Shown piece by piece: positions 49,281-57,145 of a stretch of DNA of 64,000 nucleotides (position 1 is its first letter; each line of letters starts with the position of its first letter). This DNA is from Trichodelitschia bisporula (lineage: Eukaryota). A program made the position numbers and the translations under genes. The notes beneath the pieces were generated by a model, which was given only the letters and a program-made list of their open reading frames with translations, made no database searches and was not told where the DNA came from. Location of the stretch: positions 183,923 through 247,922 of the forward strand of contig ML996698.1 of assembly GCA_010356995.1 (NCBI GenBank), in the 5' to 3' direction.

Positions 49281-50296
49281 CTATCGTCGCGCTGGCGCCC
49301 CTCCGACCGCACTGCTCGTCGCGCTTCCCCCCATCGAAGCCGTGGTACTCAGATTCCCCGCGGGCGCCGGAGCGGGCGGCGCCGCCATGGGCGCGGGCTC
49401 AGGCATAGCACCTGTATCGTCAGTCTCTCCTCTCCCAGCACTAACGGAAGGACATACCTAAGAACCCACCAAACGCACCCTGCCCTGCATTCCCCGGGAA
49501 GGCACCTGCACCGCAAAGACACATGCACGAGCACGCCTGACCATTGCCGGTAGACCCCTGGCCCGCAACGACAGAAGGCACAGCGCCGGCCGCCCCCGTC
49601 GCACCCGTCGCCGCTGCGTTCTGGTTCCCGACGTTGATGCTAATGGTGCTAGCGACCTGTGCGACTGCGGAGGGGGCCTGAATGGCGGCGAGGGCGAGGT
49701 TATTCCCACCGACTTTGATGGCGGCCTGCTTGAAGAGGTTGTGCGACTGGCCCTTGCCTTCGGCTGGCGGGTTGATCGTGAATACCATGCCCTTACCGCA
49801 GTGGGTGACTTGGAGGCAGGACATATCTGCTTTGTCAGCCCTTCGACCCTCTCATAGACCGAGACACAACGGGAATCCTACATAGCGGCCCAGCATCCTT
49901 AACGGTGAAGTCCTTGGTTGGTCCAGGGATGGTATTCGCCTCGTTCGCGATAAACCCGCTATTGAACCCGCCTTGCGCGGGCGTGCACGGGCTATCGAAG
50001 CTCGTCTGCACGACGCTGTGGTTGTTGGCCAGGAACTCGAAGCGGATCGTTTGGCCCGGCTGTGCAGTCACGCTTTCGGGGAAGAACTGGAAAGACGGGA
50101 CGGGCTTGCCGGTTGCGCCGGCTGCTTGTGGTCCGCCGGGTAATCCGCCCACGGTCACGGTGAGTGTTTTTGAGGCGTCTGGAGCGGCGGCTTTGGCGGC
50201 CATAACAATCGCTTTCGCAACGACGGGGGCGGGGTGCGTTGCAGCGGCGAGGCCGGCGATTTCGAGCAGATATATAGCGCGCATGGTGAAGCGCAT
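49281..50296 (-). CDS. Secreted cupredoxin-domain protein (3 exons)
   Basis: Signal peptide. FFPESVTAQPGQTIRFEF..NHSVVQTSFDSPC and, after intron 49881-49827, CLQVTHCGKGMVFTINP supply the type-1 Cu ligands H, C, H, M. Confidence 0.85.
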
Positions 50297-50941
50297 TGTA
50301 ATTACAGCCCGCGCAGCGGGGATAAATGAACGAAAGAAAGAAAAAGAGACCTGCTCACGTCACGTTCACGAAGGGAATGGAGTGCTAAGGCTTGGAGGGT
50401 GGGCGGGGGGGTCGCATCGCTTTTGTGGGCGCGATGGGGAGCATCTGAGGCCGTGTGGCGCGGGCGAAACGTGGGCTTCGTTCGGGAGGGGGATTTCCGC
50501 GCGGGTTGGGGGTCATGATGTTTATTGCGGTGGGTGATGGGGGCGGGAATTGGGGCCTCGAGCGTGCGGCGTGTGGAAGGCGTCTCATATCGTTCCAGGT
50601 GTGTTGCAGGCTGGGTCACGTGACCATGATAGGGGAGGTTTTTTGCTGGGACTTTTGCTGCTGCGGCGGGGAGGATTGAAGTCACGAGTAGCTGGGACGC
50701 GGGGGTTCAAGATTATGAGGGCCGTGGAGTGTTTGGTGTTTGCTGCTGCTGCGATCGGGGTCGCGATGCTTGGCTGGTGAAACGGAACGGGCAACGGCTC
50801 GTCAGCTATGGCTTGATTGACAGATGACAATGCTCACATTATCTCGGCCGTAGAAGCTTGTTTAGCCCCAAATCGGTGCTGATGCCCTCAGACTCTCATC
50901 TTAAGTCTGTGCCCGTCGATAAAAAATTCTCCTTTGCATCA

Positions 50942-51896
50942 TCACTTCTTCCCTTGCTGCTGCCCGGCGTAGAGCCCCGAGTAGTACCCAGCGTGGTACC
51001 ACGCCATCATGAGGCCCTTCTGAGCTGGATCTTGCACTGCTTTAATCAGCGAATCTTCCTAATCAAACAAGGCATTGAAAACTCACCAGTCCCAAGTAGC
51101 TCCTGCGGAATCTCGGCCCCGCCCAGCTGACTTTGCGGCCGCGGCTCCGTGGTCGCCGATGATTGTTGCTGCCCATCGTGGAGCCCCGAGTAGTACCCAG
51201 CGTAGTACCATGACATAACAAGGTTCTTCAGCGTGGGGTCTTGCACTGCGCCCATCAGCGGATCTCCTAGATTAAATGGGCATCGGAAACTTACCCGCCT
51301 GTGGAATTCCAGCCCCGCCCGACTGGTTCTGCGGCTGCGGCTCTGTCGCTGATGGCTGCTGCTGTGTCATCGTGGACTGCGCGGTCTGAGGGAGATCGGG
51401 CCCTATGGCTGGCTGCGGGAGGTCGTCATCGGAGTCACCATCGAGCGCCATGGCCTCAGATGCGCCGTCATCGAGCTCGCCTTCTTCGGCCTCCTCTAAG
51501 GAAGACTCGAAATTGCCCTCCGTCGATGCATCAGGTTCGCGTCCGTTGGTGCTGCGGCCGCCGGTGCGGACAAACTCTCGCTGCCTGAACTGGTCAGCGA
51601 TATCTCACGCATGCAAAGACGAGATATTCGGACAATATAAAAAAAAGGATATAATGGCGCCCTGCTTACGCTTGTAACTGCTCAAGCTCCTCGGCGGTCA
51701 AAACATCTTCTAGGCTCTGACCTTTGGCGTGGATGCTATGGTATTTCTATCAGAGTCAGCATCCGTGATATATCGATATAAGGATGTAAGGGTACAAGCG
51801 CCATACCTTGTACTCAGCTAGCGCTGAATCCCACGACTCGATGAGCGCTGAGTCGTCCCAAGCACGCCGATCACCCATATCTATGGAGAAAGCCAT
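50942..51896 (-). CDS. smn1: Survival motor neuron (SMN) homolog with two YG boxes (5 exons)
   Basis: N-terminal Gemin2-binding motif WDDSALIESWDSALAEYK|KYHSIH. C-terminal MSWYYAGYYSG and a second MAWYHAGYYSG. Last two introns 51294-51246 and 51086-51037. Confidence 0.9.
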
Positions 51897-52204
51897 ATTG
51901 AGTGAGAAGTTGTCAAGTAGAGAATTCGAACCCGAGAAGTTGTGCAGTTGAGAACTTGTGAAGTTGAAATAAACACAAGCTCGCGGCCTAAGAAATAGCG
52001 ATGCGCCCGACACCACAAGCAGGAGTCGCGCTAGTGGAGTAAACTCTTGGCCGCAGCCGGGTGACGGCAAAACCACGGGACGCCCGTGACGCCCAGCCAC
52101 GCCAGCCTTCGGCCAGGGTCCGGCAAAAAAAGTTCGAAGTTCGAACCACAAGTCGCGATTTCACCACCCAACACCCCAACCCCACATCTCCACCGCACGC
52201 AACC

Positions 52205-53946
52205 ATGGCTGCGGATTTAAAGAAAAATAAGCGCAAAGGTATGTAGTCTTGAAATTGTGTATATCGAAGCTAATCGTGTCTAGGCGCAGACAAATCTGCC
52301 CCGGCGGCGAAGAAGCTCAAGCCCGCGCCCCAGGCTGAGCTGAAGAAAGATGCGAAGCCCGTGAAGCCCGTTCCTGCGTCCGAAGCGAAGTCCCCGGCTA
52401 AGTCACCTGCCGCTAAGGCTGCGAAGTCAGAGAAGGCTCTGAAGGATACTGGTGCGGTGTCGCCGGCTTCCAAGGCGGGACGCAAGCGTGCTGCGGACTT
52501 TTTCGAGGCTGATGGGACGCCTGTTGAGAAGGCCCCGCCGGCTAAGGTCAAGAAGGTGGTCAAGGGTGATAAGCAGGTTGGAAATATAGTCGAGCAAGTG
52601 CAGAAGGTCAAGGAAGGACTCAAGAAGGCTCAGGCTGCCGAGAAGGAGATGGAGCAGGCGCTCAAGAAGGTTGAGGAGTTCAAAAAGGCTGACGCCACGG
52701 AGAAGACTGGCAAGAAGGCTAAGAAGGCTGGGAAGCAGGCTCAACCGGAGCCTGAGCTCGCTACGGAGGTCGAGCAGGAAGCCACAGAGGCGGACAAGCC
52801 CAAGGAGTCTAAGAAGAGCAAAAAGAACAAGAAGGCTAGCAAGGCCGAGCCGGAGTCTGTACAGGAGGAGTCAACCAAGGCCACAGCCGACGAGGAGCCC
52901 ATGCCGACATCCATCTCCCGCCCCAAGAAGTCGAAGAAGTCGAAACAGTCGGAGTCTAAGCCAGCACCGGAACCCGCGAACGATGACTTCGCTGGCTTCG
53001 AAAGCGAAGATGATGGCAGTGAAGACGAGGGCAACGACGCTGCGGACCACACTGCCGCGCTGTTGGCTGGCTTTGAGAGCGAGGATGAAGAGTCAGGCGC
53101 AGAGACTGGTATGGATGTCGAGAAGCTGCCCGCTGCGCCGATCAGCGCGAAGGCTCGCAAGCAGCTGAGTAAGGCAAACAGCGCAGACAAGCCGGGCACC
53201 ATCTACGTCGGGTATATTCTTTCCCCTCCCCCCAAACTCCTCCTGCTAATCCCCACAGCCGCATCCCCCACGGCTTTTACGAGCCGCAGATGCAAGCCTA
53301 CTTCTCACAGTTTGGCAACGTGACACGGCTCCGCCTGTCTCGTAACAAACTCACCGGTCGCAGCAAGCACTACGCGTTCATCGAGTTCGATTCTGCGGCC
53401 GTCGCCGACGTTGTCGTCAAGACCATGGACAACTACCTGCTCTACCAACATATCCTGAAGGTGCGCCGTGTGCCCGACGACCAGGTACACCCAGACCTGT
53501 GGAAGGGCGCCAACCACCGCTTCAAGGCCATCCCGCGTGCGCGCATCGAGGCCCGCCGCCTCGAGCGCCCGGCTGACCGCGAGGTCTGGGAGAAGCGCGT
53601 CGACCGTGAGGTCAAGCGGCGCCGTGCCCGGGAGCAGAAACTCAAGGCCAGTGGGCTTGATTACACATTTGAGGCGCCACGGGTTAAGCTTGTGGCGGAT
53701 GTCGCGCGCAAGGAACCTGCTGCGGTTGCCGAGACGGAGCCCGAGAGCCCTGCTGATGCCCCCGAGGTCAAGATGCTGGATGCACCGAAAGAGGTGCAGA
53801 CGGTTGAGGCCCTGTTGACGAAGGCTAAGGGTCTGGTTGAGGTTGGCGATGGCGTTGACGAGGTGGAGATGAAGGTCACGGTCAAGAGCAAGAAGGAAAA
53901 GAAGGAGAAGCCCAAGGCAAAATACTTCAAGAAGCCGAAGGCTTGA
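52205..53946 (+). CDS. NOP15: Nucleolar RRM protein Nop15/NIFK (60S biogenesis), 3 exons
   Basis: Lys/Glu-rich N-terminus, then GTIYVG|RIPHGFYEPQMQAYFSQFG..RLRLSRNKLTGRSKHYAFIEF...TMDNYLL. Introns 52239-52283 and 53212-53258. Confidence 0.92.
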
Positions 53947-54601: not shown

Positions 54602-57145
54602 ATGCGGGCACACACCTTGAGAGTGGGCGCTGTACCAGCCCTCTCAGTATATTTGCCCTCAATCCCTCGCATATCGCAGTCACTGATCAGCCCCGCAGCG
54701 CCGCTCCCCCCGCCTCCGCCGCACCCTCGCAACCGCAACCAATGTCTACCCCTCGCAGCGCGACGTCGCCGCCCGCACACCGCCGTACAGCAAGCTTCTG
54801 CGCAACCTTGCGCGGGTGCGCGAGGTACTCGGCCCGGCGCGGGCACTCACGCTGGCGGAAAAGATCCTGTACTCGCATCTCGAGAACGCGGAGGAGTCGC
54901 TGCTGAGCGGGACGGATAACGGGGCAAGGATACGCGGGAATGCGAATTTGAAGCTTAAGCCGGATCGCGTGGCGATGCAGGATGCGTCGGCGCAGATGGC
55001 GCTGTTGCAGTTCATGTCGTGTGGCTTGCCGGCGACGGCGGTGCCGGCGAGCATTCATTGCGATCATATGATTGTGGGGGAGAAGGGGGCGGATGTGGAT
55101 CTGCCGGAGGGGATTAAGGGGAATAAGGAGGTGTTTGACTTTTTGGAGAGTGCGGCGAAGAAGTATGGGATTGAGTTTTGGCCCCCGGGTGCGGGTATCA
55201 TTCATCAGACTGTGCTGGAGAATTACTCGGCGCCTGGGCTGATGATGCTGGGGACGGATAGCCATACGCCTAATGCAGGCGGACTGGGAGCTATTGCTAT
55301 TGGTGTTGGAGGTGCGGATGCTGTTGACGCGCTCGTGGATGCGCCGTGGGAGCTGAAGGCGCCGAAGGTGCTGGGTGTCCGGTTAGAAGGCGAATTGAGC
55401 GGGTGGGCCTCGCCCAAGGACGTCATCCTGGCTCTTGCCGGGAGACTGACCGTCCGGGTATGTAAATCAGTCCCTGTCAATGCGTTCCCTAATCCTCCTC
55501 GCAGGGCGGCACGGGCAAGATCATCGAGTACTTCGGCCCGGGCGTCGACACGCTCAGCTGCACCGGCATGGCAACGATTTGCAACATGGGCGCCGAAGTC
55601 GGCGCCACAACATCCATCTTCCCCTTCTCCCCCGGCCACGTCCCGTATCTGCACGCCACGCACCGCGGCTCCATCGCCGACGAGGTAACCAAGCTGTCAG
55701 GCATGCCGGAGGCGCAGAATCTGCTCCGCCCCGACTCCAAGGCTGAGTACGATGATGTCGTCACCATCAACCTGTCCACCCTCGAGCCGCACATCAACGG
55801 CCCCTTCACCCCGGATCTCAGCACCCCGCTATCCCAATTCGCCGCCGCCGTCGAGGCGAATAACTGGCCGGCCGAGCTGTCCTCAGGCCTCATCGGCAGC
55901 TGCACCAACAGCTCCTACGCCGACATGACCCGCGCCGAGGACCTGGTCAAGCAAGCCGCGGCCGCGGGCCTAGAGCCCAAGTCTAAATTCTTCATCACGC
56001 CGGGCAGTGAGCAAATCCGTGCCACGCTGGAAGCGGACAACACGCTGCAGACCTTCGAATCCGCGGGCGGCGTCGTGCTGGCCAATGCCTGTGGCCCATG
56101 CATCGGGATGTGGAAGCGCACCGATGGCGTGGTCAAGGGCACACCCAACGCCATCTTCACAAGCTACAACCGCAACTTCCCCGCGCGCAACGACGGCGAC
56201 CGCGCGACACACAATTTCCTCGCATCCCCGGAGCTGGTTACCGCGATGGCGTATGCGGGCACCACGACGTTTAACCCGCTGACGGACGAGCTTCCGACTC
56301 CCAGCGGGAAGCCGTTCAAGTTCCACCCCCCTGAGGGCCGGACTCTTCCTGACTCTGGCTTTGCGCAGGGAAATCCTGAGTTCTTGCCTACGCCTGGCGT
56401 GCCGGATCCCAGCGTCGAGATCAAGATTGATCCTAACAGCACGCGTCTCGCCGTCCTGGACCCGTTTCCCCCTTTCCCACCCACGGACTTCAAGGCCCTC
56501 CGCGTGCTCTACAAGGTCAAGGGGCAATGCACGACGGACACCATCAGCGCCGCAGGCCCGTGGCTCAAATTCAAAGGGCACCTGCCCAACATTTCTGAAA
56601 ACACGCTTATCGGCGCCGTGAACGCCGAGACCGGCGAAACGAACACAGCATACGACGTCGATGGCTCGGCCCGGACGATCCCGGAGCTCGCGAAGAGGTG
56701 GCGGGACAACGGGACCGAGTGGCTGGTGGTCGCAGAGCATAACTACGGCGAGGGCAGCGCGCGCGAGCACGCGGCGCTGCAGCCGCGGTATTTAGGCGGG
56801 AGAGTCATATTAGCGAAGAGCTTTGCGCGGATCCACGAGACGAATTTGAAGAAGCAGGGGGTTGTGCCGCTGACGTTTGCTGACGAGGCGGATTATGATC
56901 TCATCCGGTCGTGCGATGAGGTTGAGACGGTGGGGTTGAGGGAGGTTTTGGAGAAGGGGGGGGAGGGGGAGGTTAGGCTGCTGGTGAGGAGGGGGGGGGA
57001 GGTCGTTGCTGAGGTAAGGACGAAGCATACGCTTAGTGCGGATCAGTGTGGGTTTATTATTGCGGGGAGTGCGTTGAATTTATTGGCTAGGAGGGGGAGG
57101 GAGGGGAGGGAGGAGGTGGTGAGGGAGGTGGAGTTGTCGGATTAG
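54602..57145 (+). CDS. ACO2: Mitochondrial aconitase-family homocitrate dehydratase (Aco2/AcoB type), 3 exons
   Basis: Arg-rich presequence [26 protein letters not shown]...[50 protein letters not shown] and [10 protein letters not shown]. Introns 54623-54698 and 55458-55504. Confidence 0.92.

Follow-up and report, generated by a model that had tools for sequence, protein, structure and literature searches.

The SMN gene of Trichodelitschia bisporula and its surroundings

The window (the whole 64,000-nt stretch of Trichodelitschia bisporula DNA analyzed here, whose positions are used throughout) carries on its minus strand, from 51896 down to 50942, the sole SMN gene detected in the genome, with five coding exons and a 236-aa product. 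Coding exon 1 (51807..51896), present in a spliced contig, encodes the Gemin2-binding domain (Pfam SMN_G2-BD; PF20636 at 30.2 bits against a cut-off of 22.2), and is followed by intron 1 (51747..51806; 60 nt, phase 0), coding exon 2 (51670..51746) and intron 2 (51585..51669; 85 nt, phase 2), all three placed by the gene model and a spliced contig. Coding exon 3 (51295..51584; contig and model) encodes an acidic linker of low model confidence that is predicted to be disordered. Intron 3 (51246..51294; 49 nt) and its sister intron 4 (51037..51086; 50 nt), both supported by alignment and contigs, enclose coding exon 4 (51087..51245; contigs and Pfam), which reads YG box 1 (51163..51245, residues 153-180) and then a second copy of the linker. 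The coding part of exon 5 (50942..51036) holds YG box 2 (residues 206-233) and the stop codon. As the initial annotation had it, introns 3 and 4 are both in phase 1 and the exon between them measures 159 nt (phase 1-1), on the minus strand. The Pfam profile SMN_YG-box matched in exon 4 (18.1 bits, below the cut-off of 21.3) and in exon 5 (22.5 bits), and the whole protein scored 32.7 bits against PF20635.

The closest PDB sequences were 7BB3 (E 1.3e-13) and 4RG5, both S. pombe Smn1. The product is identical to the public T. bisporula gene model KAF2399045.1 (EJ06DRAFT_583029; 236 aa, both boxes), which is annotated as a hypothetical or Gemin2-binding-domain protein with the repeat unnamed, and which is the sole member of its own 90% cluster. 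Genome-wide, one locus matched the gene DNA and one site matched PF20636, both counts being lower bounds. A second SMN paralogue was considered and rejected, since the genome search, whose counts are again lower bounds, returned no second full YG locus: two weak PF20635 matches elsewhere covered only profile positions 2-39 (the N-terminal part) and stayed below the cut-off. Gemin2 is encoded in the genome (PF04938, 76 bits); profile searches for Gemin6, Gemin7 and Gemin8 gave no match above the cut-off, which does not imply absence, as the fungal orthologues are weakly conserved. Thus the gene has the N-terminal Gemin2-binding domain, the YG box, the single copy and the Gemin2 partner in the genome that characterize a fungal-type SMN, and departs from the rule of exactly one YG box per chain, which leaves its orthology unaffected.

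The divergent neighbor (52206-53946, plus strand) encodes a Lys/Ala/Glu-rich protein with an RRM domain, presumably resembling a nucleolar Nop15/NIFK-type protein, and is followed by an aconitase-family gene (54687-57145, plus strand; Pfam Aconitase and Aconitase_C). Downstream of SMN, at about 49400-50300 on the minus strand, lies a gene for a probable secreted protein, whose 5' edge is covered by deep contigs; the piece scanned gave no Pfam match, and the protein may be cupredoxin-like. Elsewhere in the genome, 15 U1-like loci (L008-L022) were found among the 41 candidates scored, nine with a canonical 5' end and six (L017-L022) with an altered one, and a Sm-site-like motif was kept in 14 of the 15. 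U2 gave 11 matches (10 above the cut-off) and U5 one, spread over several contigs; for comparison, the available text of PMC2441463 lists 14 snRNA genes in all for the Podospora genome. A link between the SMN variant and the U1 variants was not supported, U2 being multicopy as well (11 loci).

An internal duplication of exon end, intron and exon start

The two YG boxes belong to two tandem repeat units defined by gapped alignment: unit 1 (51163..51355, minus strand, 193 nt) comprises the linker end, intron 3 and YG box 1, and unit 2 (50954..51162, minus strand, 209 nt) comprises the inter-box linker, intron 4 and YG box 2. The initial annotation had rightly seen two tandem units, but had given both a length of ~209 bp; likewise it had described the duplicated piece as an intron plus a YG-box exon, of which the doubling of intron and YG box holds, but the unit also takes in the 3' end of the preceding exon. 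The duplicated unit is thus an exon 3' end (in unit 1, the final 61 nt of exon 3), an intron and the start of the last exon, and because it spans all three, exon 4 is chimaeric. Compared with unit 2, unit 1 is shorter by two coding indels of 12 nt and 3 nt, both multiples of three, and by a single nucleotide in the intron. A repeat finder returned an offset of 196 nt for the part upstream of the indels and of 209 nt for the part downstream, and TRF reported no array across the duplication.

The proposed homology of the sister introns was borne out: introns 3 and 4 are identical at 34 of 50 aligned positions, and their pair score was 48, against -1 to 17 for the other five intron pairs of the gene. 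With the splice signals removed, the intron interiors scored 23 (shuffle mean -0.6), a value reached by none of 5000 shuffles.

CAG tracts bound the duplication on the minus strand: an upstream Gln-codon tract (51356..51364), a tract at the unit junction (51163..51171) and a downstream tract at the end of unit 2 (50954..50962), all three located by alignment. The outer two have eight identical bases, and this 8-nt microhomology makes the upstream tract a likely breakpoint; the duplication likely arose when two Gln-codon tracts slipped or recombined unequally. Differences along the whole length of the copies, together with spliced contigs in which exons 3, 4 and 5 are joined, led us to reject an assembly artefact or an unspliced pseudo-exon.

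Transcription of both boxes

Two runs (X1 and X2) of one sample were used, whose RNA nature was at first guessed and is shown by their spliced joints. X1 yielded one contig in which all four coding introns are removed at the predicted ends; X2 yielded one contig that covers exon 3 and the sequence after it and is spliced at introns 3 and 4. The predicted double-YG-box SMN is therefore transcribed: the contigs of both runs (2/2, one sample) join exons 3, 4 and 5 and include both boxes, the second as well as the first. Since both introns are normally spliced, the main product would therefore be a protein with one Gemin2-binding helix and two YG helices.

The contigs also cover untranslated sequence. 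In both, a joint marks a 46-nt intron in the 3' UTR (50792..50837, minus strand), 104 nt past the stop codon. It has a GT donor and a branch-like site but closes with TG, which is non-canonical; possibly it is a genuine intron of this kind, with an effect on mRNA stability that is likewise possible. In the 5' UTR (X1 contig), three imperfect direct repeats of 16-21 nt lie just before the SMN start codon (51904-51970).

The double YG box among SMN homologs

The homolog set comprised 96 proteins, the best 150 of 600 representatives and five more rows (232 distinct proteins in total), mostly, where named, from filamentous ascomycetes and represented by gene models, which can miss a last exon. A homolog HMM was built from 226 of the 232; P0091, without a box, was left out. 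Among the 232 proteins listed (the best 150 of 600 included), the T. bisporula protein alone had two boxes by this HMM, and all 230 other listed homologs with a box had exactly one, so that among these proteins the double box is not, as the initial annotation had cautioned it might be in this lineage, already common. The single-box matches include Verruconis, Tothia and Microthyrium, which a 30-row tree placed together with the T. bisporula protein in one well-supported, internally unresolved clade; a close two-box relative would have ranked high among the matches listed. Word searches were insensitive (1/8 candidates for exon 4, 5/42 for the YG region).

No relevant paper came up when the literature was searched for double or tandem YG boxes, within a reach outside which most subscription papers lay, and the organism name was absent among the matches listed; in its available part, the text of the PMC8287954 supplement mentions neither the duplication nor T. 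bisporula. The two-box SMN is real and transcribed; the evidence for it comes so far from a single species and a single RNA sample.

Unequal divergence of the two boxes

Residues are given in human numbering taken from the text of published papers, with positions Y268, G271, G261 and I265 presumed or set by offset. Both copies have the YxxGYxxG core that had been noted from the sequence and keep the motif positions for Y, G and small residues: W267, Y268, a small residue each at 266, 270 and 274, G271, Y272, a Tyr at 273, G275 and G279. According to the available text of PMC8287954 and PMC8287938, the motif positions kept in both boxes matter for dimer, oligomer and Gemin8 binding.

Outside this core the copies are unequal, which the initial annotation had not mentioned: box 2 carries a substitution where the SMA mutation L260S lies, and a conserved upstream element is missing from box 1. 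On the homolog HMM, box 1 is typical (64.5 bits, with a median of 65.0 for the listed homologs and 104/229 of them lower) and box 2 is not (47.4 bits, 10/229 lower, hence in the lowest 5%). Of the listed homologs, 197/229 are closer to box 1 than to box 2, and the tip branch of box 2 is 0.089 against 0.021 for box 1, in tips that share the N-terminal part by construction. Box 2 has a Gln at L260 and a His at M269, each found in none of the 230 listed homologs (L, M, Y, V, I or T at the former position; always Y, W or F at the latter), and a Gly at S262, found in one. It keeps a Tyr at 277 (163/230 listed homologs) and, upstream, the Pro-Gln-x-Leu-Leu-Gly element that 167/230 have in a looser form. 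In box 1, a His replaces human Y277 (39/230), a Val stands at 264 (2/230), and the 12-nt deletion removes the upstream conserved hydrophobic element. In the available text of PMC8287954, human L260S weakens the dimer, yet mixed oligomers with wild type form, and a large hydrophobic residue at 277 is the main determinant of higher-order assembly.

Age of the duplication and selection on the second box

The comparison of dN and dS between the copies that had been proposed was carried out over 47 aligned codons. The copies differ at 15 of 35 synonymous and 16 of 106 non-synonymous sites (dS 0.64, dN 0.17, ratio 0.27; Fisher p 0.001), indicating constraint, and the linker copy gave a similar picture (dN/dS 0.21). 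The intron interiors differ at 10 of 29 sites (distance 0.46). With dS at about 0.5-0.6, the duplication is old.

The ratio of 0.27 pools both copies; therefore a neutral copy 2 was simulated, conditional on the divergence actually seen at third positions and in the introns. Among the 11 codons that at least 90% of the aligned homologs conserve, the copies show one change, which has a P of about 0.03 if copy 2 is neutral; at most one such change jointly with no stop has a P of 0.012, and a binomial version of the conserved-codon test gave 0.003-0.02. The 14 amino-acid differences over all 47 codons were not significant (P 0.08-0.18). A neutral box 2 is thus disfavoured, with simulated P values of about 0.01-0.03. 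The signal of selection could also come from gene conversion, since third positions agree more often in the zipper core than outside it (13/15 against 15/26, p 0.055); a longest-run test for conversion was not significant (p 0.18). Judged from these comparisons, selection on box 2 appears favoured, but modestly, with gene conversion possible.

Structure models and linker geometry

For the full protein, AlphaFold2 predicted helices at residues 16-37, 156-183 and 209-221 with a pTM of 0.32; over box 2 the block pLDDT was 55-59, from a 98-row alignment with all homologs on box 1, which is uninformative on pairing. A Foldseek search with this model returned nothing at E 0.001. The ESM Atlas gave two YG-box clusters (scores 0.80 and 0.77, to be read as leads only) and no meaningful structural match. 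The linker between the two YG helices is ~27 residues long, for which a polymer estimate put the local concentration in cis at 0.25-1.75 mM for a parallel and 12-42 mM for an antiparallel arrangement. Because a simple chain model gives such millimolar concentrations, contact in cis would be feasible in either polarity, and on this model the linker length does not decide between parallel and antiparallel pairing.

What the second box may do

We lean towards a constitutive two-helix SMN in which box 2 takes part in the same YG oligomer as box 1. An old tandem duplication within the gene gave the single detected SMN locus a second copy of its last intron and YG box, and the product would have two YG helices tied by about 27 flexible residues, both most likely entering one oligomer. 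Box 1 would be the stronger, typical zipper helix; box 2 would be a weakened helix that its tether keeps in the stack, through a zipper with box 1 in cis or by stacking on box 1 through the small-residue face. With such a tether, selection on the flanking residues would be relaxed, in keeping with copies that are worn in partly complementary ways. This reading is supported by the inclusion of both boxes in 2/2 runs, the single detected locus, the dN/dS of 0.27, the kept motif positions and conserved codons, the coding indels in multiples of three, the estimated cis concentrations and the mixed oligomers of human L260S; the low score of box 2, its unique substitutions, the closeness of most listed homologs to box 1, a possible gene conversion and a total amino-acid divergence not clearly below the neutral one stand against it. 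One Gemin2 site per two YG helices need not be lethal, because S. pombe is viable with its Gemin2 domain separated from the YG part (available text of PMC13249430).

Within the two-helix reading, trans zippers combined with cis stacking are a tentative option, and a cis zipper, in which the boxes of one chain zip together into a natural single-chain YG pseudo-dimer, is a doubtful one. If the cis zipper were true, a single polypeptide, with two helices for its one Gemin2 arm, would form the basic unit, and the small-residue face would be the only route to higher oligomers. The wear of the copies would then be a division of faces, with the N-terminal hydrophobic core in box 1 and the upstream element and Tyr277 in box 2. 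Furthermore, such a protein would be a ready-made tethered construct for the question of parallel or antiparallel tetramers, and would make heterozygous SMA-type mutations testable inside one dimer.

The main alternative, which has a fair minority of the probability, is that box 2 is a tolerated, slowly decaying C-terminal tail, with all the work left to box 1, and that box 2 still resembles a YG box owing to incomplete decay, to gene conversion from box 1 or to weak selection against a dominant-negative helix. The substitutions of box 2 absent from the listed homologs (one at the SMA position), its longer tip branch (again, in tips with a shared N-terminal part), a whole-unit amino-acid divergence compatible with a neutral copy and the possible conversion signal all point this way. 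Moreover, some homologs (P0076, P0079 and P0084) have long C-terminal tails past the box, and same-gene intron duplications are present in 11 of 24 surveyed fungi (available text of PMC3609843). Several lines of evidence argue against decay: i) the open frame and conserved codons of box 2 were kept beyond neutral expectation (the joint test above); ii) the dN/dS of the linker copy is low as well; iii) the upstream element and Tyr277 survive in box 2 and not in box 1, position 277 being the one named in PMC8287954, as far as its available text goes, as the main determinant of higher-order assembly; iv) both introns are still exactly spliced. On the sequence evidence, a function of the second box is likely.

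Splice tuning, in which skipping of exon 4 (box 2 only) or retention of intron 4 (box 1 only) yields isoforms with different oligomer behavior under some conditions, seems unlikely. The three in-frame products foreseen in the initial annotation do exist on paper: 236 aa with both boxes, 183 aa after the exon skip and 218 aa with intron 4 retained (stop near 51046), exon 4 being 159 nt long and in phase 1 on both sides; the skip would take out a 258-nt intron. The phase symmetry, however, is an automatic consequence of tandem duplication. The inclusion form alone was seen, with no skip or retention joint in 2/2 runs (one contig each, from one sample, in contigs that drop rare forms). In introns 3 and 4, all four splice sites and the branch points follow the ordinary consensus. 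The suggestion of a splice-tunable SMN is thus left without support.

It is very improbable that box 2 has changed its job and, no longer zipping, serves as an additional helix on which Gemin8, say, or a partner specific to the lineage would dock, or as an oligomer cap limiting growth: its changes at the flanking hydrophobic positions L260 and M269 and its kept residue 273 would suit such a role, but box 2 retains every glycine and tyrosine of the zipper, residues for which a helix that no longer zips would have no need, and no Gemin6, Gemin7 or Gemin8 was identified in the genome by searches that are themselves uninformative.

SMN oligomerization via the YG box is essential, and the box is a hotspot of spinal muscular atrophy mutations. 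How its dimers stack is disputed: in the available texts, zipper dimers stack antiparallel via a serine motif in PMC8287938, whereas cross-linking favours parallel tetramers in PMC8287954. If the two-helix reading holds, an SMN with two boxes that is tolerated in nature would demonstrate that even an essential complex can vary in how many YG helices it has for each Gemin2 arm, and would give a natural tethered pair in which each helix is separately mutable. If box 2 merely decays, the locus is still a clear intragenic duplication with intron gain, of modest importance.

Comparison with known systems

Like S. pombe Smn1 (7BB3, 4RG5), the T. bisporula protein has a Gemin2-binding helix, a flexible linker and a YG box, and no Tudor domain. 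In the available text of PMC8287954, fungal SMN consists of the Gemin2 and YG domains alone and Smn is essential in fission yeast. Unlike fungal SMN so described, the T. bisporula chain has two YG boxes, and hence one Gemin2 site per two YG helices. Gemin8 binding requires the stacked platform and residue 273 (human) in the available text of PMC8287938, and ICln is released by the YG box and Gemin6-8 in that of PMC10470402.

At the DNA level, the closest parallel is found in same-gene duplication (SGD) introns, reported in 11 of the 24 fungi surveyed in the available text of PMC3609843, where half of 82 SGD introns arose by segmental duplication; the available part of PMC3443670 likewise shows same-gene intron duplication by segmental duplication to be already known. 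As in these SGD introns, an intron of T. bisporula was copied inside its own gene with exon sequence on either side. The SGD introns of PMC3609843 are, in its available text, near-identical by BlastN, whereas those of T. bisporula are identical at 34/50 positions, and the T. bisporula duplication would therefore be older than those cases. Unlike them also, as far as that text goes, the copied coding piece is here the oligomerization helix of a normally essential single-copy gene. The DNA event is thus of a known kind, and its outcome, an SMN with two YG boxes, is apparently undescribed.

At the protein level, internal duplication can turn a homodimer into a single-chain pseudo-dimer. The T. 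bisporula SMN resembles such proteins in its duplicated interface element, in the asymmetric divergence of its copies and in a tether long enough for pairing in cis, and differs from them in that the YG helix has two interfaces, so that several topologies would be possible, of which pairing in cis is a hypothetical one.
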